Assembly (NCBI RefSeq): GCF_030684315.1
Contig: NC_081360.1
Coordinates: forward strand, 27,759,818 to 27,823,817
Reading direction: 5' to 3'
Origin: Stegostoma tigrinum
Lineage: Eukaryota
DNA length: 64,000 nt
Position 1 is the first letter of the stretch, and each line of letters starts with the position of its first letter. Under the pieces are notes generated by a model. It was not told where the DNA came from, made no database searches, and saw only the letters and a list, made by a program, of their open reading frames with translations. Positions 7,479-63,080 of this stretch are shown here, piece after piece. Both the position numbers and the translations under genes were made by a program.

Positions 7479-7479
7479 T

Positions 7480-7803
7480 AGGTGGCACGGTGGCTCAGTG
7501 GTTAGCACTGCAGCCTCACAGCAGCAGGAACTTGGGTTCGATGCCAGCCTCAGGTGACTGTCTGTGTGGAGTTTGCACGTTCTCCCCGTGTCTGCATGGG
7601 TTTCCTCTGGGTGCTCCGGTTTCCTCCCATAGTCCAAAGATGTGCAGGCTATGTGGATCGGCCATGCTGAATTGCCCGTAGTGTTCAGCGTTGTGTGGGT
7701 TATACTGGAATGGGTCAGGGCGAGATGCTCCAATGGTCAGTGTGGACTTGTTGGGCCAAAGGGCCTGTTTCTGCACTGTAGGGATTCTAATTCTAATTCT
7801 AAT
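7480..7803 (+). mobile_element. tRNA-derived V-SINE (HE1-like), full length
   Basis: GGTGGCTCAGTGG A box, GGTTCGATGCC B box, core TGTGTGGAGTTTGCACGTTCTCCCCGTGTCTGC, (ATTCTA)n tail. Confidence 0.88.
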
Positions 7804-8099
7804 GATTTATATCTGAAAGGCTAAAGGTTAGATATAAAATTTGCAATATAAAAATATCACTTACCAAGAGACTTGGACTTCAGACAGCTTCTCTTTGATG
7901 CCATTGCTCTCATCTATATTACAGCTTTAAAAATAATTAACAAGAAAGAAATATCACACTCTTAATGTAGAATTTTTAAATTATAATCCTGAAAATCTGC
8001 CATCTGAATGCAAGGAAATAAAAATGATCCTCATTTGGTTGTTGCAAATATTTCTTTGCCTTCCTTTAACAATTTTCTCTTTTAATTTCTTGGTATTTT

Positions 8100-20165: not shown

Positions 20166-21639
20166 TTAAAAAAGAAGGAACTTGAATCATTCAACTTCCT
20201 CCATTCTTTGCTGCACAATGCCCGAGAAGGTCTTGGCAGAGTCCACGTAGGAATTCTAACTAAGCTCAGAATTTAGTCTCCCTTTGATTCAGAGATCTTT
20301 ATTCCACCTCCGTAGTCAGACCTCTGGTGAATCTAAAGAACTTTAATCCATGCCAATTGAATCAGTGCGACATTAACAATTTGATGTGGTGACTTCAAGA
20401 AAAAGCAGACTGAGAATGTATTTCACAATGAATAAGAAGTACTTGTCCTGAGATGGAACCTAAGGTGATCAATTATTTAGCATTCTAGTTTGCCTCAGAA
20501 ACATGAAACAAAATTGCACATTTCAATTAAAATTAAATGAAGGTTTATGAATAATTCTCCATTGGGCAGCAATAAGAATGCCTTGCCATTTTATCAAGTC
20601 TACAGTTGATGAAAACATCCAAAAGTCTCACGTAAGAGCCTTAAAAAATATTTCACATTCACCCATATAAAGAGATTTTAGAGCATATGACTGCAACGGT
20701 GCTCAAAGAGGTCAATTTTAGGGAATAGCTTAAATGAGAAATGAAGTGTGAAAGAAATTTTTGAAGCGAATTTTAGAGATGGATATTTGTGCTAGATGGC
20801 ATTCACAACCTGGAATAGTCTGAACGCCAGAGTTTGTTGAGTAAAGGCTGTAGGGCAAGAGAAGATTACTGAGATAAGGAAGAGTGAGGTTTTTGAAGAA
20901 TTTGAAAAGGAGGTTGAACATTTTAATAAAACCAAAGAACTGAGGATGCTGGAAATCTGAAACATAAACAAAAATTTCTTGAGAAACCCAGAAAGTCTGG
21001 CAGCATCTGTGGAGAGAAAAGCTGTGTTGACATTGCTGGTCCCCTGATCATTCATCAGAACTCAGCTTTTGGATACAGGGTGATGCATAATGGAACTTGG
21101 TTCTAGCTAAAATGTTGACGGCAAAACATTGGTTGACCTTTAATTTCCAGCTGCTGCAAAGTGGGAGGCCAGCCAGGTCTGTATTGTGATAGCCGAGTCT
21201 AGCGCTAACTAGGCTGAGGGTTTTATTAGGAGATAATAAAACTTACAGGATGGTTATTGAATCAAAGGAGGATATTCAGCCCATTGTAACAATACTGGCT
21301 TTCTATTAGCTCAACTCAGCAAGTTCAGGCCTCTCCTTTTCCTTATATTCAAGCAATATCATTTGATAGGGCTGCCCAGGGCTGAAGCAGCATTACATGG
21401 CTGAAAGTGGTTAGGAGTTGAAATAAAGTTGTTGAGGAAGATTTTTTAGCTGAAACAGCAGCTTGCACAGTTTGCTGTTTCAAGTCAAAACTATAAACTA
21501 CAGTAATTAAATGCCTCATAGAAGGGAAATATCCAGGGTCACAAAATTAAGATAGCAATCATAAGGTCTTTTGAAATGCATACGAAAGAGTCATGTGGGA
21601 CATAATGTGGAGGTGCCACTGTTGGGCTGGCATGGACTT

Positions 21640-23186: not shown

Positions 23187-26100
23187 AAGATAACAAGGTG
23201 TAGAGCTGGATAAATACAGCAGGCCAAGCAGCATCTTAGGAGCACAAAAGCTGACGTTTCAGGTCTAGACCCACCATCAGAAAAGGGGGAGGGGAAGGGG
23301 GTTCTGAAATAAATAGGGAGAGAACTGGAGGCAGATCGAAGATGAATGAAGGAGAAGATAGATGGAGAGGAGACAAACAAGTCAAAGAAACGGGAAGGAG
23401 CCAGTAAAGGTGAGTGTAGGTGGAGAGGTAGGGAGGAGATAGGTCTGTCCAGGGAGGATGGACAGGTCAAGAGGGTGGGATTAAGTTAGTAGGTAGGAGA
23501 TGGGGGTGCAGCTTGAGGTGGGAGGAGGGGATAGGTGAGAGGAAGAACAGGTAAGGGAGGCGGGGACAAGCTGGGCTAGTTTTGGGATGTAATGGGGGAA
23601 GGGAGATTTTGATACCATTGGGCTGCTGTGTTCCTAAGCGGAATATGAGTTGCTGTTCCTGCAACCTTTGGGTGGCGTCATTGCCGCACTGCAGGAGGCC
23701 CAGGGTGGACGTGTCGTCTGAGGAATGGGAGGGGGAGGTGAAATGGTTCGCGACTGGGAGCTACAGTTGTTTAGGTGTTCTGCAAAGTAGTCCGCAAGCC
23801 TCCACCTGGTTTCCCCAATGTAGAGGAGACCACAACGGGTACAGCAGACACAGTATATCGCATTGGCAGATGTGCAGGTGAACATCTGCTTGATGTAGAA
23901 CGTCTTCTTGGGGCCTGGAATGGGGGTGAGGGAGGAGGCGTGGGGGCAGGTGCAGCACTTCCTGCGGTTGCAGGGGAAGGCGCCGGGTGTGGTGGGGCGA
24001 GAGGAGAGTGTGGAGCGGACGATAGAGTCACAGAGAGAGTGGTCCCTCCGGAAGGCAGACAAGGGTGGGATGGAAAAATGTCTTTGGTGGTGGGGTCAGA
24101 TTGTAGATGGCAGAAGTGTTGGAGGATGTTGCGTTGTATCCGGAGGTTGGTGGGGTGGTATGTGAGGATGAGGGGGATTCTCTTTTGGCGGTTATTGCGG
24201 TGAGGGGGTGAGAGGGATGAGTTGCGGGAAATGTGGGAGACACGATCGAGGGTGTCTTCGACCATTGTGGGGGAGATGTTGCAGTCCTTGAAAAATGAGG
24301 ACATCTGAGATGTGTGGGAGTGGAATGCCTCATCCTGGGAGCAGATGTGGCAGAGGCAAAGGAATTGGGAGTAGGGGATGGTATTTTTGCAGGAAGTTGG
24401 GTGGGAGGAGGTGTATTCTAGGTAGCTGTGGGAGTCGGTGGGCTTGAAATGAATATTGGTTTCTAGGTGGTTGCCTGAAATGGAGACGGAGAGGTCCAGG
24501 AAGGTGAGGGATGTGTTAGAGATAGTCCAGGTGAACTGAAGGTTGAGGTGGAAGATGTTGGTGAAGTGGATGAACTGTTTGAGTTCCTCGTGGGAGCATG
24601 AGGCGGCGCCAATACAGTCATCAATGTAATGGAGGAAGAGGTGGGGCTTGGGACCAGTGTAGGTGCGGAAGAGGGATTGTTCCACGTAACCTACAAAGAG
24701 GCAGGCACAGCTTGGGCCCATGCGGGTACCCTTGGCCACCCCCTTTGTCTGTAGGAAGTGGGAGGAATTGAAAGAGAAGTTGTTGAGGGTGAGGACAAGT
24801 TCTGCTGAGCGGATGAAGGTGTCGGTGGAGGGGGACTGGTTGGGCCTGCGGGACAGGAAGAAGTGGAGGGCCGTTAGGCCATCTGCATGAGGAATGCAGG
24901 TGTAGAGGGACTGGATGTCCATGGTGAAAATGAGGTGTTGGGGAATGGGGACATTGGAAGTTCTGGAGGAGGTGGAGGGTGTGGGTAGTGTCACGGACGT
25001 AGGTAGGGAGTTCTTGCACCAAGGGAGACAAAATGGAGTCGAGATAGGTGGAGATAAGTGGGGCAGGAGCAGGCTGAGACAATGGTTCGACCAGGGCAGT
25101 CAGGTTTGTGGATTTTGGGAAGGAGATAGAAGTGGGTGGTGTGAGGTTGGGGAACGATGAGGTTGGAGGCTGTGGGTGGGAGGTCACCTGAGGTGATGAG
25201 GTTGTGGATGGTTTGGGAGATGATGGTTTGGTGCTCGGGGGTGGGGTCCTGATCCAAGGAGCAGTAGGAGGAGGTGTCGGAGAGTTGGCGCCTGGCCTCA
25301 GCGATGTCGAGGTCAGTGCACCATACTACAACTGCGCCTCCCTTGTCCGCGGGTCTTATGGTTAGGCTGGGGATTGGAGCAGAGGGAGCGGAGGGCTGCA
25401 CGTTCTGCGGGGGGAGAGGTTGGAGTGGGTGAGAGGGGTGAGAAGTTGAGGCGATTGACATCTCAACGACATTTGGAGATGAAGAGGTCAAGCGAGGGTC
25501 GGAGGCCTTGGATTGATGTCCAGGTGGAGGAATTGTGTTGGGGGAGGGTGAAGGGGTCAGTAGAGGTGGGGTTTGGTCAAAGAAGTAGGCGTGGAAGTGC
25601 AGGTGGCGGAAAAATTGCTCGATCTCCAAACGTGACCAGTATTCCTTGGTGTGTGGGTGGAGGGGGACAAAAGTGAGCCCCTTATTGAGGACTGACTGTT
25701 CAGCCTCAGTAAGGGGGATATCGGCGGAGGGGGGGATGGTGAAGATTCAGCAGGGCTGTGTTCCTCTGGAGCTGCTGGCTGTGGAGGCTGTGGGCGGAGC
25801 AGTGTCGGTGTCAGCAGTGGTGGGCAGAATTGCGTCAGCAGTGGGCGGAATTGTGTCGGCGTTAGTGGTGGGCGGAGTTGCGACAGCGGTGGGCGGTGCA
25901 GGGTAGGCGGCGGCAGAAGCAGTGACTGTAGTGTCAGTGGTGTTGGCCTCGGAAATGGAGGCGACGGCTTCAGCAGCGATGGTGTTCACTGACCCGGAAG
26001 TGGTGTACCTCACAGTGGTGGATGTGACGTCATCTGTGGGTTCTCCCACAGTGGCCTCATGGCCAATGGCGGTGGGTACATTGTGGGGAATGTCCTGGAT

Positions 26101-26335
26101 ACGGCTGGGGATTTGGGAGGTGGAGGAAGCCCGTTTTAGGTGGCAGGGACCAGTGAGCTTACCGTACTTAACGCTTTTTAGTGCCCAATAAAGCTGAGTA
26201 GAATTGTGAGTTCAGGTTGTGGATCCTATGAAGAATAAAAAACAAGACAGGTCTTTTGCAGGTCTGGGGGAGGGAGGCTCTGAGCTGGGGCAGGCTGGAT
26301 TGCAGTGCCTGGAGATGCCGGCGCATTGTGAAAGC
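23187..26335 (-). mobile_element. Penelope-like retroelement (RT + GIY-YIG endonuclease), frameshifted
   Basis: Reverse ORFs: IRPADKGGAVVVW, FYLLPKIHKPDCPGR, TMDIQSLYT.IPH, Q.KGVA.GTRMGP, YIDD; FTCTSANAIYCVCCTRCGLLYIGET (GIY-YIG); terminal repeat at 23187-23290. Confidence 0.95.
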
Positions 26336-28637: not shown

Positions 28638-28736
28638 ATTGGTCTTGACAACTATGATTTTACTTTGCTGAATATTCTTAAAAATAATAAAATATTCTGA
28701 ACTTCACGTATTATGCTCATTTATTTAAATTTTTCT

Positions 28737-29578
28737 GTTGCGATCAATAGATATAGATAAGCTGCAGAGCTGGGCCGAGAGGTGGCAAATGGAGTTTAAT
28801 GCAGACAAGTGTGAGGTGATGCACTTTGGTAGGAGTAACCAGAAGGCAAAGTACTGGGCTAATGGTAAGATTCTTAGCAGTGTAGATGAGCAGAGAGATC
28901 TCGGTGTCCATGTACACAGATCCTTGAAAGTTGCCACCCAGGTTGACAGGGCTGTTAAGAAGGCATACAGTGTCTTAGCTTTTATTAATAGAGGGATCGA
29001 GTTCCGGAACCAAGAGGTTATGGTGAAGCTGTACAAAACACTGGTGCGGCTGCACTTGGAGTATTGTGTACAGTTCTGGTCACTGCATTATCAGAAGGAT
29101 GTGGAAGCTTTGGAAAGGGTGCAGAGGAGATTTACTAGGATGTTGCCTGGTATGGAGGGAAGGTCTTACGAGGAAAGGCTGAGGGACTTGAGGCTGTTTT
29201 CATTAGAGAGAAGAAGGTTGAGAGGTGACTTAATTGAAACATATAAAATAATCAGAGGGTTAGATAGGGTGGATAGGGAGAGCCTTTTTCCTAGGATGGT
29301 GACGGCGAGCACGAGGGGGCATAGCTTTAAATTGAGGGGTGAAAGATATAGGACAGATGTCAGAGGTAGTTCCTTTACTCAGAGAGTGGTAAGGGAATGG
29401 AATGCTTTGCCTGCAACAGTAGTAGATTCGCCAACTTTAGGTACATTTAAGTCATCTTTGGACAAGCATATGGACGCACATGGAATGGTGTAGGTTAGAT
29501 GGACTTGAGATCGGTATGACAGGTCGGCACAACATCGAGGGCCAAAGGGCCTGTATTGTGCTGTAATGTTCTATGTAA
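28737..29578 (+). mobile_element. young 5'-truncated CR1 LINE (HER1-like), uninterrupted ORF2 C-terminus
   Basis: 251-aa ORF DIDKLQSWAERWQMEFNADKCEVMHFG...FTQRVVREWNALP; 3' UTR ending TGTTCTATGT. Confidence 0.95.
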
Positions 29579-31594: not shown

Positions 31595-32588
31595 TAGAAC
31601 ATAGAGAACATAGAACAGTACAGCACAGAACAGGCCCTTCAGCCCACAATGTTGTGCCGACCATTGATCCTCATGTATGCACCCTCAAATTTCTGTGACC
31701 ATATACATGTCCAGCAGTCTCTTAAATGACCCCAATGACCTTGCTTCCACAACTGCTGCTGGCAACGCATTCCATGCTCTCACAACTCTCTGCGTAAAGA
31801 ACCTGCCTCTGACATCCCCTCTATACTTTCCACCAACCAGCTTAAAACTATGACCCCTCGTGCTAGCCATTTCTGCCCTGGGAAATAGTCTCTGGCTATC
31901 AACTCTATCTATGCCTCTCATTATCTTGTATACCTCAATTAGGTCCCCTCTCCTCCTCCTTTTCTCCAATGAAAAGAGACCGAGCTCAGTCAACCTCTCT
32001 TCATAAGATAAGCCCTCCAGTCCAGGCAGCATCCTGGTAAACCTCCTCTGAACCCTCTCCAAAGCATCCACATCTTTCCTATAATAGGGCGCCCAGAACT
32101 GGACGCAGTATTCCAAGTGCGGTCTAACCAAAGTTTTATAGAGCTGCAACAAGATCTCACGACTCTTAAACTCAATCCCCCTGTTAATGAAAGCCAAAAC
32201 ACCATATGCTTTCTTAACAACCCTGTCCACTTGGGTGGCCATTTTAAGGGATCTATGTATCTGCACACCAAGATCCCTCTGTTCCTCCACGCTGCCAAGA
32301 ATCCTATCCTTAATCCTGTACTCAGCTTTCAAATTCGACCTTCCAAAATGCATCACCTCGCATTTATCCAGGTTGAACTCCATCTGCCACCTCTCAGCCC
32401 ATCTCTGCATCCTGTCAATGTCCCGCTGCAGCCTACAACAGCCCTCTACACTGTCAACGACACCTCCGACCTTTGTGTCGTCTGCAAACTTGCTGACCCA
32501 TCCTTCAATCCCCTCATCCAAGTCATTAATAAAAATTACAAACAGTAGAGGCCCAAGGACAGAGCCCTGTGGAACTCCACTCACCACT
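31595..32588 (-). mobile_element. young 5'-truncated CR1 LINE (HER1-like), uninterrupted RT to end
   Basis: 300-aa ORF SGVPQGSVLGPLLFVIFINDLD...SKFADDTK...; (TTCTATG)n-type tail at 31595-31617. Confidence 0.96.
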
Positions 32589-33642
32589 GTAGAACAAGGT
32601 TTGAGAGACAGAAGGTTTCTAGATAGAACAGGCTTTGAGAGAGGGATGGTTGCTTGTTCCTCACGAGTTCTGTTGGCTACATTAATTGCAGGCTGCCAGG
32701 CTCTTTCAGTAAAAATGACTGATTTCCAAAAGTCTTTCTCTTTTCCCTCTCTTTGCCTGACTCAAAGGTAAATTGCTCATAATCATGCAGAAAAAGAGCC
32801 ATGATGGGTGCTAAAGAGACTGACATTCAGCTTCTTAGCCTCTTTGAGATGAGGAACCTGAGTCTGCTTGCTCTAAGTGAGCATGCTCAAGTCCCTGGAC
32901 TGATGTTGAAAGTTTCCCTTGACTTATTATGCTGGGAATCTGAGGCTGAAGGACAACTCCATGATTTGACAGAAGACTACAGCCCTTAGACCTTGAAACA
33001 TGGCTACTTGGTTCATACACATACATTGAGATATGCCATGAGGTTGCACTGCAGTTGGCATGGATCTGATACCAATGCCTGTCAATGGATAGTGCATGCT
33101 ATTAGTACTCATGAAGGAAGCCCCGAGATTTTGGGGAAACATATTCATGGTGGAGGGCCAGAGGAACAAGTGATGAGTTCAAGTTGCCAGGTTACTGCGC
33201 TGATTTCAAGTCAGCCATTGTCACCGCAAGTGGGAAAATGAGAAGATGCTGATAAATGAGACGAGCTGAACTAATAGTGAGAAAGTTACTGCATGATAAT
33301 ATATGTAAATAGGTGTCTTGCTATTCAATAATGGGATTCTAATCGCGGTGTTCAATTATTGCTTGGGAAATTGGGACATTTTACTCCGGATGTTGAGAAT
33401 CACCTCACTAAAAACCTTCCATAATATTCCCAAATTTCTTACCAAACCCATCTTCTTAAGATCCTGGGAAGATTCCACCCACTGTCTCAAAGATCTCCTT
33501 TGGGAAGCTGAGTTAAAAATGGTGCCTCTCAGTTGTACTGACATGGCATTCAAATGGCTTCCTTCTGTGCTATTACCAACCTGCAATTTTATGAATCAGT
33601 GTGGAAGTTTTATATCATCTGAGTTGGATAAAGGAAGTCTGG

Positions 33643-34043
33643 GGTAATGGGAACTGCAGATGCTGGAGAATCTGAGGTAACAAAGTGTGGAGCTGGATGA
33701 ACACAGCAAGTATGACCCCGCCTCCCTAATGTGTTCTTCGTCTCACCTATCCCCTCCTCCCACCTCAAGCCACACCTTCATTTCTTAATTATGAACCTCA
33801 TCCTGTCCCCTTGACCTGTCCGTCCTCCCTGGGCTGACCTATCCCCTTCCTACCTCTCCACCTATACTCTCCTGTCCACCTATCTTCTCCTCTATCCATC
33901 TTCGATCCGCCTCCCCCTCTCTCCCTATTTATTTCAGAACCCTCTCCCCCTTTTTTGATGAAGGGTCTAGGCCCAAAACGTCAGCTTTTGTGCTCCTAAG
34001 ATGCTGCTTGGCCTGCTGTGTTCATCCAGCTCCACATTTTGTT
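33643..34043. mobile_element. Penelope-derived non-autonomous element with inverted ends
   Basis: Body is the reverse complement of 23190-23570; decayed hammerhead core near 33955-33982; direct repeat ATAAAG(G/A)AAGTCTGG at 33628 and 34044. Confidence 0.88.
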
Positions 34044-34111
34044 ATAAAGAAAGTCTGGAATAAGTTTCAAGTAAATGCTTATGCAGTACTTCATGCATCT
34101 TCACTTTCTCC

Positions 34112-43905: not shown

Positions 43906-46122
43906 ATGGGAAAGGTATGGTTAACCCTTACAGTTTTCATATTTTTATTAATAATTAATTGGAAAATACAAATATTTTGTTTCATTTCCTTTGCCCACAG
44001 ATTATCTTTTACGAGGACAGGAACTTCCAGGGTCGGCACTATGAGTGCAGCAGTGACTGTGCCGACCTGACCCCTTACTTCAGCCGCTGTAACTCCATCC
44101 GTGTTGAGAGTGACTGGTGGGTGCTGTATGAGAAACCCAATTACATGGGACACCAGTATGTTCTGACCAGGGGAGACTATCCTGACTATCAGCGCTGGAT
44201 GGGATTCAATGACTGTGTCAGGTCATGTCGCTCCTACCCTTATGTAAGTTAAACATTGTCCTTATAGATAAAATGACTGGTCACTTGGTTTATATTTATG
44301 GAGGGTTATTCACCTATTGCTTTAATCAATCAAAAAGTTGAATGGTTTGTTAATTCCACATTCCTGGGCGGCATCTGTTCATAATTAATTTAAATTTTAA
44401 AATGGAATCTAAGTGGTAAGCTGCATGTGTTTGCCTGAGCTGTAACATTCATGATTTTCCTCAGGACTGATTGATCGTCATAGCATTGATAGCAAATAGA
44501 TAGAATTGCTGTGATACACTGAGAGGGTCAAAGGTGTATTCCCACTCATCTTCCACAGATATCACAGACACCAGTCAAAACAACGTCTGCATAAACTCTC
44601 ATTGATATATGTCTTCACAAACGATATAGTAAACAGAGTGATTAAGCACTCATGATAAACCAGATACTAGAAAGGTGAGAGAAACGTAACCTGAATTTAT
44701 TCAGCCAACTAGTGTTCATATATGTATCTACATAGTGGACAACTCATGAGAAAACAGCACTTGAAATGGTCTCTTGACTTTCTTCCATTCCACTCCCAGG
44801 AAGTACTGGTTGGAAGTAACTCTTTTGGCTAGTGTACGGATTTAGGTCATAATCATCCAGGATCTCATTGAGTGCCAGAAGAGGCTTGAGGGGCACTATT
44901 GCCTATTCCTGTTCCTATGTTCCCATATTTACAAAATCAGTATTCATAAACTGGATATCCATTTCTAGCACCAAGGCTGGGTACAGTGTAATTTCATTCC
45001 ATAAAATTTTCAGCTCATGTTTTTATTTTTATCAGCAGTAATTTTTATTCAATGTTTGACAGTATTGACTATTATTAAAATGCTGATTGATACACAAAAA
45101 AAACAAAAGAACTGCGGATGCTGTAAATCAGGATCAAAACCAGAAGATGCTGGAAAAGCTCACTAAGTCTCGCTGCAACAGTGAAGAAAAAATCAGAGTT
45201 AATGTTTCAGGTCCGGTGATCCTTCCTTAGAACAGAGGAAGGTTCACCAGACCCGAAAGGTTAACCCTGAAGTTTTTCTTCACTGATTGACATATATCTG
45301 GTAGCCAAACACAGCATACTGCAAAACACAAAAGGGACATGAGCAGCTTCGTACAAAATAGGCTGTTAAATGCCTTTGTTTGAGAATTTTCATCAAAAAT
45401 GTAAATAGTTTTCCTGATGATGTTACAAGTCTAAAAACATCCTCTTTTACATAACTTTACTGCATTTTGTACAATATATTTTACTTGCATTACGAATGTT
45501 CCATCTCAGGGGAGGTGATGGCCTAGTGATATTATTGTTAGACTATTTAACCTGAGAACCAGCTAATGTCCTGGAAACCTAGGTTTCATTCCTGAGATGG
45601 AATTAAGAGTCTCATGATGCACATGAAACTATTGTCATTGTCAAAAAAAACCCATCTAGTTCACTAATGCCCTTCAGGGAAAGAAGTTGCTGTCCTTATA
45701 TGGTCCGTCCTACACATGTCTACAGTACCAAAGCAATGTGATTGATTCTTAACTGCCGTTTGGACAATTAGGGATGGGCAATATATTCTGGCCTGACTAG
45801 TGATGTCCTCATCCAGTGAAAGAATTTTAAAAATATTCTATTGCAGTACCGTGGAGGCTCCTACAGAGTGAGGATTTACGAGAGGCCTGACTTTGGAGGG
45901 CAGATGATGGAATTCATGGATGACTGTCCATCTGTCTACGATCATTTCCGTTACCATGACATCCACTCCTGCCATGTGATGGATGGCTACTGGATCTTCT
46001 ACGAACATCCCAACTACAGAGGGCGGCAGTACTTCCTGAGACCCGGTGAATACAGGAGATACACTGACTGGGGAAGCTACAGCTCAGCTGTCGGATCTTT
46101 CAGGCGAATGAGAGATTTCTAA
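43906..46122 (+). CDS. gamma-crystallin gene 5, join(43906-43914,44001-44243,45847-46122), 175 aa
   Basis: Open frame, canonical GT-AG introns, TATAAA 43841, AATAAA 46173; ORF track shows exon 2 (43959..44252) and exon 3 (45841..46122). Confidence 0.96.
45509..45826 (+). mobile_element. tRNA-derived SINE, second family, in intron 2 of gene 5
   Basis: TGGCCTAGTG A-box-like, GGTTTCATTCC B-box-like, tail TAGGGATGGGCAATA.AT.CTGGCC shared with the LINE 3' end. Confidence 0.8.
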
Positions 46123-49780: not shown

Positions 49781-51693
49781 ATGAAAAAGGCAAGGATAAA
49801 TGTATTCTGTCCATGTATTCATCATTAAAGATTGTCTAGCTTTTGAAATTATTAATTGGCAAACACATCTTTTAACAAATCAAACGGATAATATTTTACG
49901 AGGACAGGAACTTCCGGGGTTGGCACTATGGGTGCAGCAGTCACTGTGCCGACCTGTCCCCTTACTTCAGCCGCTGTAACTCCATCCGTGTTGACAGTGA
50001 CTGGTGGGTGCTGTATGAGAAACCCAATTACATGGGATACCAGTATGTTCTGACCAGGGGAGAATATCCTGACTACCAGCTTTGGATGGGATTCAATGAC
50101 AACATCAGGTCATGTTGTACCTACCCATACATAAACTATTGCAATGATTGTTTCAGGTCACATTGCTGTTACCCATATGTAAGTGATTTCTGATAGTTCT
50201 TGTTTTCTAGCCCAACTGAAATTGAAAATGACCTGTGTGCTCAACATTCATGTTTGTGTACATCAAGTCTGTAGAATTATTGTTTGTTTCCACAGTGCTG
50301 ACTTTAACTTTTGCCAGTATACCTTGGAAAAGTGGTGAAGTGTCTGCCTGACAAAACATCCAAGCATCATCACAGAATCTACAGTGTGGAAACCGGCCAT
50401 TCAGCACAACAAATCCACACCAACTCTCCAAAGAGAATCCCACTCAAAATCACCCATCCCTGCAATCCTACCCTGTAACCTTGCATTTCCCATGTCTAAT
50501 CTACCTAACTGACACATCTTAGGACACTACAGACAATTTGGCATGGCCAAACCACCCAGCCTGAACATCTTTCGTACACTGGGTGGAAACCGGAGTACGT
50601 GGCCACCACACAGACAGAGGGAGAATGTGTAAACACCATACAGACAGTTGTCCAAGGTGAAATTGAACCCAGGTCCTTGGTGCTGTGAAACAGCGATGCT
50701 AACCACTGAGCCACGAACCAGCCTAACTCATTTACTGATCCACTAACACATGTATCTGTCACTGTCCAAAGTCATTATCTGTCCTTGTAATTTTGACCTT
50801 CCAGAAAAGTAAAATGGGTTATTCCTTCAGTCAATCGTTGTGCAAACACAGTGTAGTTTCTAGGTGACATCTGACATGATTCTGTTGCAACATTGATGAA
50901 CATCTGGGATGTGAAGAGAAATGGTTATTGTCATTAATTAGACAGCCAGTAAAAGTCAAATTGCTGCAATGACAGTGTAGAAAGTAAGCATGTTATTACA
51001 GATGGGCTAGTTCCATACTGTATGTTGAGAGATATATTTGCACACAGCCCAATCATTTACTGCGAATAATTGAAACGTTACAGGAAATATAAAGCTGCCC
51101 TCACTTGGAGAAACAGATTCCTCACAATAGGAACCAGAAGTACATTTAGACTTTTACTGTTATTAATAAACTCCAGTCTAATATCAGCCTCATGCACGCT
51201 TACAGACACTTCGCTCATTATATGCACTAATTAAATAGGAACTATTTATTGGTAAAGAAATGTCAAACATAATCCAACTATTGAATCAATTTAAAAAATT
51301 AAATCAACTTTGCCCTCATTGATGGTGTCATTAATTGGCCTCATTGTATTCCTTCTTACACGACATTTCTCTTTTTCTAAAGGTACCATACATGGATCTG
51401 TAGTTTCCTCACTGATATCATCTTATTTCTATTGCAGTACCAAGGATTTACGAGAGGCCTGACTTTGGAGGACAGATGATGGAATTCATGAATGACTGTC
51501 AATCTGTCTACAATCATTTCCTTACCATGACATCCACTCCTGCCATGTGATGGATGGTTACTGGATCTTCTATGAACATCCCAGCTATAGAGGGTGGCAG
51601 TACTTCATGAGACCTGGTGAATACAGGAGATACACTGACTGGGGAGGCGACAGCTCAACTGTTGGATCTTTCAGGCGAATGAGGGATTTTTAA
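49781..51693 (+). pseudogene. gamma-crystallin pseudogene 6 (exons 49781-49789, 49888-50178, 51438-51693)
   Basis: ATGAAAAAG|GC; exon 2 acceptor CGG instead of CAG; duplicated exon 2 3' end; exon 3 is 256 nt (19-nt and 1-nt deletions) and frameshifted; TATA box is CATAAA. Confidence 0.92.
50370..50714 (-). mobile_element. V-SINE (HE1-like) in intron 2 of pseudogene 6
   Basis: Reverse strand GTGGCTCAGTGGTTAGCA, GGTTCAATTTC; homologous to 7480-7803. Confidence 0.82.
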
Positions 51694-54600
51694 CTTGTTC
51701 AAAACTAGATTTTGTTAAATTAACATATTCCTAACATAATGAATGTACAATTAGCATAACTAATATCCTTTATTGGATTTTATATCTTTAGACCAGCCAT
51801 CTTTTATGGCATTAGCAGCACAATAATTATGGAGAGAAAACTTTTCAAATAAATTTGAAAATGCATACCAACAAGGTATTCTCCCCATTGTGTTTTATGA
51901 AAATTATGCATTGCTTTACATTGCTTTCAGACTTTCCAGGGCACTAGGAATTTTATTCTAGAAAATCTATGAACGCTGCACCTAAAAAGATTAAGTGTTG
52001 TGGTATTCCACTTTATTTGACACCTTATAGGAGTCAGGAGCAGAAAGGGAGCACTTACTTTGGACATTTTGTTCCCCAGAACTGTACATGAAATACAAAA
52101 GTTCACACAAGGCAAAATGGCAGCAGTTTCAGAAGAGAATTTGAAGAGGCTAAGGCAGCGTCTTTCCTATGCACAGAACATTCTTCCTGTTCTGGGCCTC
52201 CCACACCAGTAGCTCTGGTGGAATCTTGTTCATTCCAGGCATGTCAAAGTGGCCCACTTGATTGGCACCTTCCACATCCAGCACCTTCAATTTTGACTTC
52301 CTACAGGGCCTGCACCAAGGACAGTGATTTGTACAACATGAAAGAAGCACTGCAACATCTTGCCAAAGCTCCTTCGCTGGTACTTTCCAAGGTGCAGCCA
52401 ACAGCGACAACGCATATGAATGTTGTCAACTTCAAGTTCACACACCATCCTAACTTGGAGCAGTATTGCTGTTCCTTCACCCTCACTGAGTTAAAACCTG
52501 AAACTCTCTTCTTACAGCACTGTGGATGTACCTACATCAGATTGGATGCAGTGTTTCAAGGTGATTCACCACCAATTTCTGTAGGACAATTAGGAATAGA
52601 CAATAAACGCTGAACTTGCTACCGATGCACAGAACCTCAGAATGAATAAATAACAACAAACTTTTCTCTGTGACCTTTGATTTGTCATCATCTTCCACCA
52701 TTAGTGATGTTCTCAACTGACAGGTTAGTTTGCACAATATGATGTGTACTTCAGTTAAAACTACATTACTGTGTGTTGGGATGCCCTTGACCCACTAAAT
52801 AAATCATTGCAAAATGAGTAGGTGGCCAACAAATCTGCCTGGTAGTGGCCCAATAAAGTCAATTCCAATGTGGTCAGAGGATAGTTTGGCAGAAGTAGGA
52901 ATCAGAAAAATGCACTATGTATACTAATACTTGAGTTGAGCTGCATAAAAATTAAATATTTTTCAACTGTATTAACAATGTCACATTTAAAGGGTCACTG
53001 GGTTGATTCTCTGGTTTTAAAGGTAATCATTTCTAATGAGACTTGGCTGCCCTCAGGTGACCGGTGAAGCATTTGGAAGAAGTTATCTGCATAACTGATG
53101 ACACACATATAATTGGGCATGGACATCAAGACTTTCATTCAAGCGCAGAACTTGCTGGCAAAACTCAGCAGAGTCTGGCAATATTTGAGGGAGATGGCAA
53201 ATGTAATGACTCTTTAATGGTTGTGCATCAGCTCTAATGAAGATCGCCTGGACCTGAAACATTAGCTCTGCTTTTGCCTCACAGAAACAGCCAGAACTGC
53301 TCAGTTTTTGGAGCAATTTCTGTTGTTGTTGCAGATATCCAGCATCCACAGTTCTTTGGTTTATCTTCTTGAAGATGTCTGGATTTTCCTCACGTTTGAG
53401 AAAATCAGGAACTTGCAACATATAGTCTTCACCCGTTGTGCATCCCCCTATGATGTTTACTTGAACACAGGAGTGATAGAGACAAAAATTGAAGGAAATG
53501 GAGAAATAACAATGGAGAAGAAACCATGAAGAATGTTATCAATTATATGATAGAAAGCAATACCGAATAGTCATACATTTTCAGGAACTAGAATTAAGGC
53601 TTATGTATGAGGCAGGGCATGAGATGCATTTTGTCTGATAAGCTCAAGGAAATGGGACAGAGGCAGTGAAGCTTCTTGGAGAATGTGAATCATTGAAGGA
53701 ACACATTATGAAGTAAAGTGACAAGGAGATGACTGTGTTGTCATCATCTAAATCTTGGAGGATTATCATGTTTCGGGACTGTCTCTTCAGGTTAGGATAA
53801 AATGGATGAATCAGTGGAGTCATGTTATCTGTTCTGAATTCTGCCTAATGACGAGTCTGGTTAGTTTGCCTTTTAAAAATTATCAGGGCCAAAGCTTTTT
53901 TTCTTGGCAAAAAGTGAAAGTTATTCATAGTGATTACACCAGCTGTGCTGATTACAGATAGATGTTAGTCTTCAAATCACAGGAAGGCATTAGGGGTATC
54001 AGACTTCATAAATGGTTACACTTTAAGCTATCTATTTTATTCCAAGATAGAATGGAGTTGAGTCCTTGAGGATCACTAATTAACATTTTGATCTCAGAAC
54101 AAGATACAGGAAAGAATATCTTCACCAGCTCAGGGGTTGTCTGTCTGGTGCCTGTACTCAAAACCCACTTTAACCCTGAAGAAAACCAGTTAACTATTCT
54201 TTCAGCATTTGTTATGAGCTATGACTTTTAATTGATAAGTTGGGGACCATTTGTAAGCAAATCAGCAGTCCTGCATCTCTTGTAAAACAGTAGAAGCATT
54301 GAGAAATGGCAAGGTGAGGGGTGATCAGCAAGGTGATCAGCAAAGACCAACTCAACACATCTTCTGAACAAAGATTACTGAATGGTTTTGCCAGTTTCAC
54401 TCTGTCCATGTAGTTTTCTTTTTCCCTGTCTAAGTCTCTGTGCCCGTGCATATGTCTAAGGAGAAATTTATAAGGGAATTAGAGTTATAGTTAGTATATT
54501 CACATATTGATGGTTTAGATCCCTGTACCTGTAGTTACGTATAATTACTTGTACTAAATAGTAATTATTGCTCAATACAACAACCTGGTCTGTGCTTTCT

Positions 54601-55339
54601 ATTAGTCTGGGTCTAGATATTAGGCAAATTGGGAATTTTGTGTTTTTTAAAAAAATCTTTAAATCTTTTAAAAAAACTCGAGGAATAGCAGGGCTTCATT
54701 TTCAGTGCTTCACCCCAGTGAGGTGTTACAACCGTGAATGCAAATATACAAAGTTAAAGAACAGCTGAGTTAAAGAAATCCGGAAATGATATAGATAGAA
54801 AATGCCATTACAGTGATAAGTGAAATCATCTCATTGAACTGGAAAAACTTTAATACTTTCTAGTGGATTCTAGGACAGAGAGTGACCTCAGAGAATACAT
54901 GACTGGACTTCGTGGAGAAGTTAGAGAATCGAGGAAAAATTCCCAAGTATTTAAAATGCCTGATAAAGTCCTGCATTATTGCATAATCTTGATTATTACA
55001 TTTACGTATTTTTGTTGTATTACACCTGCATTTGAATTTTAAATAAACGCAGAGATTCTTTTGTCCATAAACACCTGCCTACTGCCTTCTTCATTTCACA
55101 TTCCCTAAATAGATCCATTGTCCTGAACCAGGCATCTGGGGATGATTGGATATCTTGGATTCTCCAGCATCTGCAGTTCCCATTATCTCTGGGGATGATA
55201 CAAACAACTTAAAAATCAGCAAATAACTGATTGCAAACCAAAACTCTACAGTTTCAGTTCTTAAGCTATAATGTTGCTTCAAAATCAAACACTAAGCAAT
55301 GCAGGACTAACAAGGAATTTGCTGGTTCATGATTAGTGA

Positions 55340-55840
55340 AGGTTGTGACATAAAAATAGTTGGGGAGGCATGTGGTGAGGATGACATAAACAGAATTTGG
55401 AGGGACATAGACAGGTTAAACAAGTGGCAAAAAACTTGGCAGACAGAAGGTAGTGTGAGAAAATGTTAGATGAAAAATGAGTGGTGACTTGATAGAGGTG
55501 TACAAAATGATCAGAGGTATAGACAGAGTGGACAGCCAGAGACTTTTTTTCCTAGGGTAGAGGTAGTTATTACGAGGAGGCATAGTTTTATTGTGAGTGG
55601 AGGTAGATATAGGGGACACATCAGAGGTAGGTTCTTTACTCAAAGCGTGGTAGGGGCGTGGAATGCATTGCTGGAGAGGATAGTGGAGTCAGCCTCATTA
55701 GGGGCATTAAAGCGGCAATTAGATAGGCATATGGATGATAATATAGGTAGGGGTGGAGGTTAGATAGACCTTAGGCTTAGGGTAAAAATTTGGCACAACA
55801 TCATGGGCTGATGGGCCTGTACTGTGTTCTATGTTCTATA
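55340..55840 (+). mobile_element. CR1 fragments (3' end with TTCTATG tail)
   Basis: GGTGACTTGATAGAGGTGTACAAAAT...TTCTTTACTCA..GTGGTAGGGGCGTGGAATGC. Confidence 0.8.
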
Positions 55841-55854
55841 TACTTTGGCATGCA

Positions 55855-56425
55855 GGGTCATAAATCACACCACACCAGTTTATAGCCCAACAGGGTTATT
55901 TGAAAACACTAGCTTTCTGAGCATTACTCCTTCATCAGATGTAGTGAGAGAGGTATCAAGATGTAGAATTTATAAGTAGAAGATCAAAGGTTCATACAAC
56001 TGATGCAAAATGCATCAAATAAACCTAAAATGGCTGGCTGACTCCCTCACGTCAAATCTTTAACCAGTTAGGAAGGAGATGCAGGTTTCAATTGATTAAA
56101 ATGCAAATCCCAGAATTTCTTTCAAGTCACTGCCCTGAGATAACTAAAGGTTTTACATCTGAATGCAAGAGGTAATATCTCTGGTCAGAAATTGCAATTT
56201 GGGTGTATGAGGCCTTGTTTAGAATCTATCTGTGTTTTAACTCGGAGCCAGACCGGTTTTATTTCCAAAGTAGAATTTATAAAATGCCCCATTGACTGAC
56301 TGTGTCTACGAATTGTGTGCTTTCTGAACAAAATAGAATGTGTCTGCAAATACAAATTTGCAAATGCAAATTCACCCCGAAGATTTATATGTATCTGTGT
56401 GTGTGTGCGTGTGTGTGTGTGTGTG
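55855..56425 (-). mobile_element. Penelope 3' remnant, second family, with hammerhead-like core and (TG)n tract
   Basis: Reverse strand CTGATGA-AGGAG-TAATG-CTCA-GAAA-GCTA at 55910-55938; (TG)n at 56397-56424. Confidence 0.6.
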
Positions 56426-57545: not shown

Positions 57546-57930
57546 ATATAAGCACGAAGCCAAACCAGAAAGCAAGAACTATAGTAAGCCTGGAAAGCCA
57601 TTGCCTTGTTTTGATAAGAGTTACATCATAACCTAAGGAATTTTCCTTGAGTTCCCTCTCCAGACTGTGTCCTGTTGTCCAAAACGTTAAAGTCTCAGAT
57701 TAATAAGTAAGTATTGGACTTAGAATTTACATTGTAGCCTATAACTTACAAGGTATAATTTCCCAATTTATAGTAAAAATGTTTGATGAGAATATTAGGT
57801 ATTAACATGCCACCCCCCACTGTTGAGTGTAAACATCCAATTCTGTTCCTGTCAGATCATTAAGAGTTTATAGATGAGTGTGAGTTTCTCAAACATCTAA
57901 AGTTGCCAGAAGCTGCTGGTAAATCAAGAA

Positions 57931-58242
57931 TAAGAGATAATGGGAACTGCAGATGCTGGAGAATCCAAGATAATAAAATGTGAGGCTGGATGAACACAGC
58001 AGGCCAAGCAGCATCTCAGGAGCACACTGACCTATCCCCTCCCTACCTCCCCACCTATACTCTCTCCACCTATCTTCTTTACTCTCCATCTTCGGTCCAC
58101 CTCCCCCTCTCTCCCTATTTATTCCAGTTCCCTCTCCCCATCCCCCTCTCTGATGAAGGGTCTAGGCCCGAAACGTCAGCTTTTGTGCTCCTGAGATGCT
58201 GCTTGGCCTGCTGTGTTCATCCAGCCTCACATTTTATTATCT
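57931..58242. mobile_element. young Penelope-derived non-autonomous element with inverted ends
   Basis: Arms 57967-58026 and 58186-58245 are near-perfect reverse complements; TGGTAAATCAAGAA at 57917 and 58243. Confidence 0.9.
58148..58179 (+). ncRNA. minimal type I hammerhead ribozyme motif
   Basis: CTGATGA (58150) - A GGG TCTAGG CCC - GAAAC - GTC (58175-58177); palindromic ACGT in place of helix III; helix I only 2 bp locally. Confidence 0.7.
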
Positions 58243-60623
58243 TGGTAAATCAAGAACACTGGTTGAGGCCTGATCTTTGGAGAACCAGTTATAAGATGCT
58301 GAATACTTTCTTTTTTCCTTGTTGTGGGGCGGAGTTCATGGAAAGAGAGGTTCAGGAGTTGAAGGCAAGGGCATATTGCCACCTTGCCAGAGCCAACTCA
58401 TTCAATCATGCCTCTTTCTTGTCATCTTTCTCACTACACCCAAGGGACGGAAAAGTCTGCCTTAAAACTGAGAATGAGTAAGTGAATACACTACTGCATT
58501 CAATGGATACCTTGGGAATAATGTTATCAACAGTCAAAGCATCAAAGAGAGTACAGAAACTTTTGAATATATCTTAAAAGCTTTACATTCATCAGATGTC
58601 CTTGAAACTTCTGATAAATGCTTCAATTTAAGAACAAATAAATGAACATGGTTCAAGAAAAATCCATATTTAATTTCATCAATGATCTTGACAGATTAAT
58701 GGAAAGTTGTGCATATGGAAAGTTGTGAGTGTGGAGATTTGAAATCAGAATTCATAAGTGAAAGACTTGTTAGAATTCTTCATAAAATTTTGTCTGATGT
58801 CTGACCTCCATGAATGGTGCTGAATATTGTGCAATCATCGGCAAATATCCCACCCACTCACAGGGTCACTGATCTGATTGGACAATAAATCTTAATCCTG
58901 AATCAAGCACAAAGTCAAATAGATGTCCACTATCATAGACAAATTCCATCTCTCTCTCGTCTGATTAGCTTGTTCCCCTAAGATTGTCTTGGCTGTCTTC
59001 TCTATTGGAAGATTCTCATCAAACACAGGTATCTTTTCTAATGGTGGTGGGTATTCTAATTTGTAGACCACTTTACATATGGAACAATCAATACTTTCAC
59101 TTTTCTGAAACTGTGGCTTATTCTGCATTTTTTTTGGAAATACCCAAAACACTTCTGTGTACCAGATTGATTATGCTTCAACTTATAGTAGCTTCTAAGC
59201 TCAACCTATATACGGTCTATTAGTATTTGTGAATATTTTACAGTCAGGTTGTAAATGTATAATGAACATTCTTGGAATTACTAAAAATGAATTGGAATTA
59301 CTAAAAGGCCATTTGTGATTGAATTTCATTGAAATAGTGTTCTAGGCAGTGTGATTTTGATACTCCACCATCCAATTCAGCATATTTAGACAGTTCCACA
59401 TTCAATGTACTCAAATACTATGCAGCAATACTACGATTATTTAGTAGCTATAACTAATTCTGCCAGATATAAAGACTGAACCCCAAGTGTTGACCATTTC
59501 GATGGAATTCACCAAATTACTACATAATTAAAAAATAATTCACTATGGGTGCTGCATAAATATAAGATCCCAGCACTAAAAAATTGTGAACGCTGCTACG
59601 GAATTTCATTGAGATCTTTAGGAGTAAATCTTGATAGATCTGTCATGCTTGATTATCAAGCTTGAATCGAGAAATGAATATTTTCTCAAGTTTCTTAAAA
59701 TATTTATTCAATGAGCAACAGTTAGGAGCTGTCATATCCTGGTGTTTCTGCCTCTGCTGATGCTACCACACTCTGAGCATTTCCATCATCTTGATTTTAT
59801 TTTCAGATATCTGGCATTTGAAGTTTTTCTTAAGTTTCTTTGGTTCATAAGATTTTGTTATGGAAATATGTACTATATAATCAAAACATAGAATTAAGCT
59901 CACATGTTTGAAAATGCTAAGAACCAAAATTAGACATCAAAGCACTTAGGAGACATCACAACAGATGACCAAAGTCTTGGTCTAAGAATTACTTTTACAG
60001 ACCCTTTTGAAGGAGCAGAGAGATGTGGAAAGGAGGAGCAATTAAAGAAAGAATTCCTGAGTTCCTGACCTAAGCAGCTAAAGACCAGCTCATCATGGAT
60101 GGAGCAAGTAAAATTGAGCATGTTCAAGACTCCAAAACTTGGGAGTGCACAGAGAGATCTTGGATAACCGGGGATCTACATGTGACAAAACTGAGTTTAT
60201 TGCATATTAAATTTGTGTTGAATTGTATTCAGATGATGGAAAGTAATTGGGGATTTACCTGATTGTAGGTTTGTAGCTGCACAGTATGCAAAGCGGTTGT
60301 AAATAAAGGATGGATATCAGTGATGGGGGAAATGGAATCATTTAAAACAAATTGAGAATTTTGTTAAACTGGGAGCAAATGCAAGTTATTGAACTCAAGA
60401 ATGATGAGTCTACAAGATTTGGTACAAGTTATAAAGTGGGAGGCAGGGCACATGGAAGTTTACAAAGGGTGCATATTGAGATGCTGGCTGAGTGAACAGG
60501 GAAATAGTAAAGGATTGGAAGAGGCCATGATCAGCCATAACCTAATGGTTGCAGATTTTCTGGAAATAAAAAGCCAAACTAGTTGTCTAACGTCATATTT
60601 AGTCAATGTGATCGTCAATGTGC

Positions 60624-60660
60624 CAGTCCTGAAGAAGCGTAATACCCGAAACATTGACTG
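60624..60660 (+). ncRNA. decayed minimal hammerhead motif in a Penelope-derived fragment
   Basis: Helix I CAGTC/GACTG flanks CTGAAGA...GAAAC-ATT; followed by family arm GATGCTGCCTGGCTTGCTG. Confidence 0.55.
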
Positions 60661-60980
60661 CTCTTTTCCTTCAGATGCTGCCTGGCTTGCTGTTTTATTC
60701 CAGCCTTCTGTTTGTTTGGCTAGTATTCACATCTTTTCTACTTACATATATAAAATAACTAATGAATAAAAGGACAATGCCTGGCTTGTGACAATTCAGC
60801 AGAGTTCAAATGTTTTTTTGTGTATTGTATTCTAAGAATAACAAGGGGCCCCTCAACTTTTGTTTTTTTTTCCCTGCAGGACAAATCAAAATGACATGAA
60901 AGCAAAACACAAAGAGCCAATTGTTATCTGTCACTCTGAATAAAGGTACTTTGCTGAAATATCTGTAACACATTTTAGGT

Positions 60981-61114: not shown

Positions 61115-63080
61115 ATGGGAAAGGTGAGGTTGATTCTGATATTATTTACATTTTATTAATGATTCATCAGAAAATACAAATATTTCATTTGCTTCCTTTG
61201 CCCACAGATCATCTTTTACGAGGACAGGAACTTCCAGGGTCGGCACTATGAGTGCAGCAGTGACTGTGCCGACCTGACCCCTTACTTCAGCCGCTGTAAC
61301 TCCATCCGTGTTGAGAGTGACTGGTGGGTGCTGTATGAGAAACCCAATTACATGGGATACCAGTATGTTCTGACCAGGGGAGACTATCCTGACTACCAGC
61401 GCTGGATGGGATTCAATGACTGTGTCAGGTCATGTCGCTTCTACCCATATGTGAGTCACAAGTTCATTGTCCTTGTAGAAAAAAAATGAGCTGGTCAATT
61501 GACTTATATTTAGAAAGATCTGTTTAACTACTTATTTGGATAAAAGTTATTTACTTCATATTTTCATGCAATCAATTTAATTGATAATTATTTGAAATTT
61601 TAATTTGGAACTTAAATTGTAGCCTGCAAATTGGAGGCCTATGCTTGCTCAGTAATTTCCTCAGGACTGTCCTGATTGACTGCTATAATTTTTATGAGAG
61701 AGTAATGGAAAAGCTGATTCCCTGATAGGAGCAAGGGGAAGGTGGGGGCTGATGAATGGACTTTTCTCAGTCTTCTCAGATGGTGATCAATCAAGGCAAT
61801 TTCTGAACAAATTGCCGGTGACATATCACTTGCGAAAGGAAAAACATAAGAGCGCGTAAATATAACAAAGTAGGCACTAAAGTAATGAAAGAACGCATTA
61901 AAGTATATATCAGAGAGCAACATACTTAAAACTAAGGCTGACTTGACTTGTCAACTAACTAACTCGAAAACATAGTGCCAAAGCAAACTTTCTGGGTAAT
62001 CTTCTACTTCTTTCACAGTTGATGTGAAGATATCAAAGAGCCCAGCTTGGATATGCCTCAGTTCAAAAAAGGGATGAAAGTGCAATGTCATTTATCATTA
62101 GTAGATTTAAAAGTTGGAATTACAACAATAAAAACAAACATAATAAGTGAACATCTTCTTGTCTGTCATGGATTCTCCAGCATCTGCAGTTCCCATTGTC
62201 TCTTCTTGTCTGTCATGGATTCTCCAGCATCTGAAGTTCCCATTGTCTCTTGTTGTCTGTCATGTCCACTGAGACTTGCGCTAAGCCAAGTCTTCTCCTG
62301 CAGTTGCATTCAAAAGGGGAAAGTTTGGATTGTTTTTTGTAATGAAGATTTTTATATGCCCTATCATTAGCCTGGCTAGAACTAAGGGTTTGCCTTGGGT
62401 GCAATGGAGGTTTAATGCTTTATAATGGAACAAGTGACTATTTCTGCTGTTAGGGACTATAAGGAACATATTGAAAAAATTAAAGATCAATCTTTCAGGC
62501 TGAACTTAGCACATTGTCCTACTTGCTAAGAGTGGTAGATGTAATTCTTTTCCAAAAATGACAAGTGATGGCAGATCAATGATTAGTTTGGCTAGGCAAA
62601 TTTGTTAAATGAAATTGAGGGAAGGCAAATATTTGGGATTACATCATAATTAGTCACAAGCTCCTTGAATATTGGAATAGAGTTGAGGGGCAAAATAGCC
62701 CACTCCAGTTCTTATGATTCTCGGTTCCCAGTATTAACACGTACACTGCTAAATGTCAAATCAACGTAGCTGCATCAAAAATCTTTCACTTCTTTCTATT
62801 GCAGTACCGAGGAGGGTCCTACAGAATGAGGATTTACGAGAGGCCTGACTTTGGAGGACAGATGATGGAATTCACAGATGACTGTCCATCTGTCTACGAT
62901 CATTTCCGTTACCATGACATCCACTCCTGCCACGTGATGGACGGTTACTGGATCTTCTATGAACATCCCAGCTACAGAGGGCGACAGTACTTCCTGAGAC
63001 CCGGTGAATACAGGAGATACACTGACTGGGGAGCGACCTGTTCAACTATTGGATCATTCAGGCGCATGAGAGATTTCTAA
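61115..63080 (+). CDS. gamma-crystallin gene 7, join(61115-61123,61208-61450,62805-63080), 175 aa
   Basis: Open frame, canonical GT-AG introns, TATAAA 61050, AATAAA 63128. Confidence 0.96.
62155..62265. repeat. 47-bp tandem repeat (2.3 copies) built from a Penelope-terminus fragment, intron 2 of gene 7
   Basis: CTTCTTGTCTGTCATG-GATTCTCCAGCATCTG(C/A)AGTTCCCATTGTCT twice, then CTTGTTGTCTGTCATG. Confidence 0.8.

Follow-up and report, generated by a model that had tools for sequence, protein, structure and literature searches.

Junctions at a predicted hammerhead cut site bound tandem repeats of a Penelope-like element in the Stegostoma tigrinum genome

A hammerhead motif at positions 58150-58177 of a 64,000-nucleotide stretch of the Stegostoma tigrinum genome (NC_081360.1, positions 27,759,818 to 27,823,817; the whole stretch is referred to here as the window) belongs to the terminal repeat of a Penelope-like element (PLE), and head-to-tail junctions between copies of this element start, in most of the cases scored, at the exact base that follows the predicted cut. 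The pattern suggests that the ribozyme cuts in vivo, cleavage being read from the junctions at this base (A1.1), and that the reverse transcriptase (RT) of the element re-initiates repeatedly on the cut RNA. From genomic sequence, we place this reading at a probability of roughly 0.78. Hammerheads in PLE repeats are already known, and the element is an ordinary member of its class; the cut-bounded insertion products are the new part. A literature search, covering sources other than subscription journals and supplements, found no report of cut-bounded arrays or of a record of cut-site junctions.

The hammerhead at 58150 is complete and of the minimal PLE type

The first-pass annotation of the window had claimed a complete hammerhead core at 58150-58177 on the forward strand, and this holds: the sequence reads CTGATGA-A-GGGTCTAGGCCC-GAAAC-GTC and every conserved core position is intact. 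The minimal type I hammerhead as a whole occupies 58148-58179 (+). Helix I is only 2 bp long (CT/AG, 58148-58149 with 58178-58179), helix II is better drawn with 4 bp and a CUAG loop, and an ACGT palindrome replaces helix III. The predicted cut lies between 58177 and 58178, and base 58178 (A1.1) is taken as position 0. The motif carries the CUGANGA and GAAA boxes, an NUH triplet, an extra base after A9, the G10.1-C11.1 pair and the palindromic 15.2/16.2 positions that mark minimal hammerheads. The descriptor scan that the annotation had suggested recovered two strict minimal hammerheads in the window, at 58150 and 18318; the average over 200 dinucleotide-shuffled versions was 0.05. The 58150 motif has no match to a curated Rfam hammerhead covariance model: the window gave no Rfam match at gathering score, and the interval 57900-58300 gave no hammerhead model up to E = 10.

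The RNA monomer is predicted to fold in a way that buries the core (−11.4 kcal/mol, against −3.6 for the hammerhead fold), which is in line with the protein-assisted cleavage of the anole element discussed below. No significant folding stability was found for the ribozyme or the tail (z-scores of 0.46, 1.33, 0.04 and −0.21), and the best predicted RNA dimer is not a double hammerhead. Helix II and its loop (58158-58169) come close to a 12-base palindrome, which the GGGTCTAGACCC variant completes; this offers two RNAs another place to pair, and the best predicted dimer makes use of it.

These features agree with the minimal hammerheads of metazoan PLEs (Cervera and De la Pena, 2014; PMC4209133), for which low in vitro activity is reported. 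In the sections of that paper drawn on here, the ribozymes likewise have no helix III stem, an extra base after A9, the G10.1-C11.1 pair and palindromic 15.2/16.2 positions, and they likewise sit in terminal repeats, mostly singly on truncated copies and in pairs on opposite strands. For Drosophila virilis the paper gives a helix I of just 2 bp, as in the 58150 family. The same sections differ from the present case in offering no in vivo evidence and in naming no shark.

The motif lies in a dead, two-armed copy of an endonuclease-bearing PLE

The 58150 locus is a dead two-armed insertion that occupies 57917-58256, and its hammerhead is part of a PLE terminal repeat. A 14-bp target-site duplication flanks it on the left (57917-57930, +) and, with the same sequence, on the right (58243-58256, +). 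The inverted arm (57931-58026, −) runs from approximately +102 of the element, the outer initiation site, back to +6 after the cut, and includes the ∼34-nt ‘tail’, that is, the bases between +67 and ∼+102. The direct arm (58027-58245, +) is a 5′-truncated end of the terminal repeat that begins 123 bp upstream of the core and stops at +67, the inner initiation site, and its last three bases are common with the target duplication. It is 81% identical to the PLE end at 23187-23369 (−) and 88% identical to 33834-34045. An inverted 5′-truncated arm, a 30-40-bp tail at one end and a target duplication are all found at 57917-58256, as in the complex PLE insertions described previously, which also include partial tandems (Craig et al., 2021; Arkhipova et al., 2013, PMC3846280). 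In the parts of those reports used here the function of hammerheads in nuclease-bearing PLEs is called unclear and, in contrast to the present case, unit boundaries are not tied to a cut or to a capped start.

A broken, near-full-length older PLE of the same lineage lies at 23187-26240 (−); its hammerhead (23253-23280) carries A9>G, and its RT and GIY-YIG regions are spread over several frames. A near-intact full-length copy was found elsewhere in the genome (L234, G000:C1:45239000-45247500, −). It has a repeat-ORF-repeat layout, with a unit of 3,556 bp; a further copy, L235, has the same layout, and in both the partial tandem forms pseudo-LTRs that carry the hammerhead. The single ORF of L234, a 675-aa frame, combines an RT with a C-terminal GIY-YIG domain and contains ADKGG (DKG), YIDD and VVYCIHCTRCGFLYIGET; the Pfam matches to RVT_1 (E = 4e-6) and GIY-YIG (E = 7e-4) are both under gathering score. 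The zinc-finger linker CX2-5CXXC is represented in both L234 and L235 by CNRRKCYTC (CX4CX2C). Judged by motifs and layout, the parent would be a Neptune-type endonuclease-bearing PLE, the linker being a feature common to Neptune and Nematis. The first ATG of the L234 long frame lies at ∼+138, so that cutting would strip the cap from the message. Short upstream frames in this copy begin inside the core and at +18.

Head-to-tail junctions fall on the base after the cut

An array in the window illustrates the junction pattern. It occupies 6840-7238 (+), between the two halves of a 14-bp target duplication (6840-6853 and 7225-7238), and comprises an inverted arm (6847-6914), three 69-bp units (6911-6979, 6980-7048 and 7049-7117) and, at 7118-7223, a final unit that includes the tail. 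Each of the five pieces has its first base immediately after the hammerhead cut, and the core is absent from all of them.

Genome-wide, 153 head-to-tail junctions were found between approximately −17 and +9. Among 99 second-copy starts, 77 fall on position 0 and 9 on −1, the other 13 lying elsewhere (p ∼ 1e-54 in a binomial test over 36 positions), and 44 of 61 loci have at least one junction at 0. These counts come from a script that was run on the window array and on 60 of the 62 loci listed, one contig-15 locus being left out; 53 of the 153 junctions fall outside the list. A downstream control of 66 junctions is spread over ∼26 positions, with a maximum of ∼12 at +10 (hand count). Among all 5′ junctions the same base stands out, with 3,552 at 0 against 712 at +1 and 925 at −1; cut-ended copies are nevertheless a few per cent, 3,552 against at least 161,456 copies.

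Microhomology does not explain the peak, since position 0 offers only 1 nt at the usual re-entry point and the positions that offer 4-5 nt (5 nt at +24; 4 nt at +10, +25 and −1) are rarely used as starts. Moreover, the first A cannot be derived from the re-entry template in 27 of 78 cut-site junctions.

A second, upstream 5′ end points to a capped start

A distinct group of ends lies just upstream of the core, where positions are counted from C3. Ten of 30 exact-core loci have their 5′ end just a few bases ahead of the core. Pattern searching gave 15,946 copies truncated at most 17 bases upstream, and about 97 of the 100 listed start at −7 to 0 (hand count). Head-to-tail junctions of this kind (n = 43, at 37 loci) start between −9 and 0, with 32 of the 43 at −5 to −2, the zone corresponding to 58145-58148 (+) in the window. 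Reverse transcriptases copy the cap as an additional G. An untemplated G is present in 24 of the 43 upstream junctions, in 20 of them as a lone G, and in none of 78 cut-site junctions (p = 6e-14). The element RNA therefore most likely starts, capped, 2-5 bases upstream of the core. A start at this place would make the ∼100-bp copies the 5′ end of the RNA itself, RT having started in the 5′ copy of the tail.

The absence of the cap G at position 0 bears on a competing account, in which the same element is at work but position 0 reflects a stall of RT on the folded or protein-bound hammerhead, a host ribonuclease cut at the C-A step, or a second transcription start. C-A steps are labile; in addition, 9 of 99 junctions begin one base early, a separate cluster at +7 to +9 indicates that peaks also arise from other causes, and the other families described below support the cut weakly. 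Against this, the cap G is missing at position 0, the peak has a width of a single base and coincides with the site preset by hammerhead chemistry, the stronger helix II shows no peak, and a second family that has a C-U step at its cut still places two of four junctions there. We consider this account unlikely.

The arrays were probably laid down in a single integration

One target duplication of 10-18 bp surrounds the whole composite at 39 of 60 fetched loci (hand count), as it does at the window array; the remaining fetched loci mostly ran past the fetched stretch or took in neighbours. A single enclosing duplication indicates that the repeats were laid down in one integration. Arrays reach nine junctions in length, with up to about ten units of 68-69 bases per integration. 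Where an array has two or more cut-site junctions, the linkers differ from unit to unit in 9 of 13 cases, as expected if every unit is a fresh priming event, and one-base differences among them could include assembly errors.

Uniform linkers, seen in the other 4 of 13 and in the window array, would suit an origin after insertion, whether by slippage, by unequal exchange or by new copies landing in old ones at the cut, and the four arrays may have expanded as DNA. Older hammerheads do receive nested insertions in this genome. As a general account of the arrays, however, a post-insertional origin appears improbable. Arrays are found on both arms within a single enclosing target duplication, and a host copy's upstream half is missing; duplication of DNA would not be expected to select the cut base together with the site where RT starts; nested insertions gather at −17, not at 0; and the linkers differ in most of the arrays. 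For the young arrays, nested insertion at the cut site was rejected. Templating of the arrays by circular RNA was likewise rejected, as a circle joins C17 to A1.1 and not +68 to A1.1; for the full-length partial tandems it is possible.

At seven loci (L146, L150, L151, L157, L159, L186 and L191) a unit that ends at or near the cut is followed by an inward copy that starts at ∼+68, crosses an intact hammerhead and continues into the upstream repeat. These inward copies probably represent a jump to an uncut template.

A model for cut-bounded reverse transcription

The preferred reading, cleavage in vivo with re-initiation of RT on the cut RNA, can be set out as a series of proposed steps. A capped RNA would begin 2-5 bases upstream of the core and run through the ORF into the next repeat copy, thereby carrying both the hammerhead and the initiation region twice. 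By analogy with the chemistry of the anole element, the protein would nick both target strands 13-18 bp apart, and RT would prime from each nick at internal sites near +65/+68 and +100, giving the two arms observed in the insertions. A start in the 5′ repeat copy would yield the ∼100-bp copies that end at the cap, and a start in the 3′ copy the longer, ragged copies such as 58027-58245. In a minority of RNAs the hammerhead would be cut, probably as a protein-assisted dimer formed through ACGU; the two hammerheads of one capped RNA, 3.56 kb apart, could pair in this manner with the help of the protein. RT on a cut RNA would then run off exactly at A1.1, where the junctions are seen, and may either re-prime at +68 and recopy 68-69 bases, building repeats within one integration, or jump from the cut end to the uncut 3′ repeat and continue upstream. 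We regard it as somewhat better than an even bet that a germ-line cut makes a bounded template on which the telomerase-related PLE RT adds repeats iteratively or from which it jumps to the uncut 3′ repeat.

A close biochemical comparison is PAc, a Poseidon element of the green anole (Frangieh et al., 2024; PMC11167929). The portions of that study considered here describe two internal RT start sites that bound the tail, cutting and extension of both target strands, and a hammerhead ∼90 bases upstream of the start sites whose cleavage occurs only with the protein, all of which resemble the present element. There are also differences: the protein here appears to be of the Neptune type, the main PAc template is uncut RNA, and the long-frame ATG, ∼138 bases after the cut in L234, lies inside the ribozyme in PAc. 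Cleavage was dispensable for PAc insertion in vitro, no reads ended at the cut, and cut-bounded repeat arrays are not among the products described in those portions.

Telomerase is an RT that copies one RNA segment repeatedly into tandem DNA. Recopying of one RNA segment into tandem DNA is also described for DRT2 (PMC12039810), and R2 (PMC3774820) resembles the present case in template jumping and in a ribozyme cut that fixes the 5′ junction, as far as the sections of these papers used here extend. The likeness to telomerase, DRT2 and R2 is one of working and not of membership, the arrays here being an insertion by-product at nuclease cuts and their 5′ boundary a probable hammerhead cut. If the proposal is true, the ribozyme would be a template-boundary and strand-transfer device and a candidate route to the regeneration of pseudo-LTRs, the element would provide a living parallel to telomerase repeat synthesis, and the genome would record cap and cut at single-base resolution. 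The one-base cut peak, the separate capped start and the bounded arrays supply exact RNA ends and products for tests with purified protein, and the junction test is applicable to any PLE-rich genome.

Copy number, selection and the question of a separate family

The exact 28-mer core is present in 92,176 copies in the 3.2-Gb genome (pattern search; control 0), and the 24-base stretch after the cut in at least 161,456 (pattern search). The vertebrate counts of ∼4,000-9,000 in the consulted parts of PMC4209133 are descriptor-based and not directly comparable with the exact-copy figure. The ∼100,000 young copies constitute a natural record that bears on the in vivo role of PLE minimal hammerheads.

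The annotation had proposed that a retrozyme-like family of non-coding, ribozyme-bearing elements is mobilised by Penelope RT. The first half of this proposal stands, in that minimal type I PLE hammerheads have been spread by the Penelope protein; the separate non-coding family is not supported. At all 30 exact-core loci the hammerhead and tail align colinearly to the window's coding PLE, and the 5′ ends are ragged: the nearest lie 1-2 bases before the core and the farthest over 1,500 bases ahead of it. The TGGG variant occurs in 2 of 10 short and 6 of 20 long copies (p = 0.68, hand count), which marks subfamilies common to both.

Excess conservation of the core over its flanks, which the annotation had named as a test of its proposal, is not found. 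In 50 young copies chosen without reference to the core, non-CpG divergence is 1.2% in the core (6/500) and 0.8% in the flanks (14/1850; p = 0.41). Thirty-four of the 50 keep all hammerhead features, and CpG decay strikes G12 and the palindrome. The boxes are constant between families and the core decays like its flanks, which places selection on master elements and makes the dispersed copies passengers; the ribozyme is selected in the former and not in the latter. With passenger-like dispersed copies, there is no longer a case for a retrozyme family of its own, in the sense of the parts of Cervera and De la Pena (2020; PMC7229834) and Li et al. (2026) drawn on here.

Non-LTR retrozymes do share with this element a type I hammerhead, a link to PLE repeats and a high copy number, according to the same parts of PMC7229834 and Li et al. 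(2026); a heading of the latter preprint gives up to 120,000 copies for the axolotl. In the retrozymes described in these sources, monomers a few hundred bases long stand in tandem, each bears a hammerhead, usually a canonical one, and circular RNA is formed, whereas the common tandem unit here begins after the cut and is coreless. Tandem units that each have a complete hammerhead are seen neither at 58150, which holds a solo core, nor in the window array; consecutive core-bearing junctions on one strand, at a spacing of ∼100-110 bp, occur at only 3 of 37 loci; and no discrete non-coding monomer independent of the coding element was found among the copies analysed.

Several points could still be read in favour of short, self-transcribed hammerhead elements that form a family of their own and are moved in trans by Penelope RT. 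The ∼100-bp copies that start at the likely capped start are abundant (the 15,946 pattern matches and 10 of 30 loci noted above); the promoter of Drosophila Penelope is internal, according to the part of PMC2377424 seen here, so that short copies might be transcribed; a few loci have two or three core-bearing tandem units; and retrozymes have been proposed as derivatives of PLE repeats (bioRxiv 2026.07.22.740005, in the part used here). Such a family is nonetheless very unlikely. The short copies have no private sequence variants, their ragged 5′ ends are colinear with the coding element, the 58150 locus has no tandem monomer and the common arrays have no core altogether, and the majority of solo copies stop near +65, short of the +100 region that templates the outer arm. 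The short ‘ribozyme elements’ are accounted for by products made from the RNA of the PLE itself, and no new family is needed.

Replication in other families and the limits of ordinary 5′ ends

Other PLE families bear out the pattern only weakly. An unrelated family with a GUC/U cut and a longer helix II (L193-L196, L049, L022 and L013) has two of four head-to-tail junctions at its own cut, an intermediate subfamily one of one, and a third family none of one. In the older subfamily, 27 junctions include one clear start at the cut; the 20 that were fetched are mostly insertions of younger copies into older ones, and of about five same-subfamily cases only one starts at 0. No cut peak is seen in the second family among ordinary 5′ ends: of ∼33 truncated rows counted by hand, ∼3 start at 0 and ∼5 at −1; the pattern used was one register off and mostly caught point mutants. 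The upstream sequence of this second family resembles what we take to be a Poseidon-type nuclease end.

In the young family, ordinary 5′ junctions cluster at +7 to +9 (26 of 60), with 15 of 60 at position 0. Seven of these 15 are fold-backs on the AGCT palindrome, which do not require cleavage; fold-back junctions track palindromes (AGCT, GC at +9 and ACGT) and were set aside as evidence of cutting. The second cluster, at +7 to +10, is family-wide and takes in the inverted arm at 57931-58026 (+6).

Younger copies also insert into the helix II loop of older hammerheads at −17, where a TCT matches their own end. At least 11 of the 27 junctions are of this kind (L238, L240-L243, L245, L246, L248 and L249), and the −17 loop is a hot spot for nested insertion that disables the older ribozyme.

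Other cores and the surroundings of the 58150 locus

All the other sites named in the annotation are present as related cores, although most are broken and not complete. The estimated density of one core per 6 kb is close: the 64 kb hold about 13 cores, or one per 5 kb, and only two of them are complete. The second complete core (18318-18345, +) belongs to the older subfamily, has a GUU triplet and lies on the sense strand of a gamma-crystallin intron, between exons 17910-18143 and 19064-19330; an inverted arm directly upstream of it could lengthen helix I. The cores at 7380 (−) and 60629 (+) keep the catalytic boxes and have lost the ACGT palindrome. The boxes are broken at 21058 (−), 33955 (+), 37709 (+), 45230 (−), 45234 (+) and 53234 (+). 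Two cores of a further family, at 55938 (−) and 21645 (+), had not been listed.

Two of these sites are two-armed copies: an older one at 7289-7480, with a core at 7353-7380 (−) and a decayed one on the forward strand, and a truncated one at 33645-34045 (+) that contains the broken core at 33955. The core at 60624-60661 (+) and the decayed core at 53230-53267 (+) each belong to another PLE family, and their first helices are paired as CAGTC/GACTG and AGCT/AGCT respectively, just as the annotation had described. Decayed relatives of the 53230 core lie at 21025-21062 (−), at 37709 (+) and at 45196-45268 (both strands). In the further-family core at 55911-55941 (−), which has the decayed relative at 21645 (+), AGCT replaces the ACGT palindrome.

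Across families the boxes are constant, the 2.1-1.1 pair is U-A, C-G or A-U, and the palindrome is ACGU or AGCU; helix I, helix II and the palindrome vary while pairing is retained. The covariation in helices I and II that the annotation had proposed as a check is visible by eye as compensatory changes in the best copies of six families.

The window holds seven gamma-crystallin genes on the forward strand (2766-63077) amid CR1-like and Penelope-like repeats, with exon pairs that begin at 2766/10350, 17910/19064, 27043/28365, 38907/40181, 43989/45850, 49885/51443 and 61196/62808. In the sixth gene the reading frame of the last exon is broken near 51517-51520, and the last exon of the first gene is diverged. 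The LINE 3′ fragments include 28729-29576, 31608-32761 and 55478-55842, presumably of the CR1-like family, with a Pfam RVT_1 match for 31688-32761. Insertions of the tail only (∼+63/+68 to +102/+110), with flanking duplications, are present at 55151-55190 and 62166-62254, the latter having two units and its flanking sequence in triplicate.
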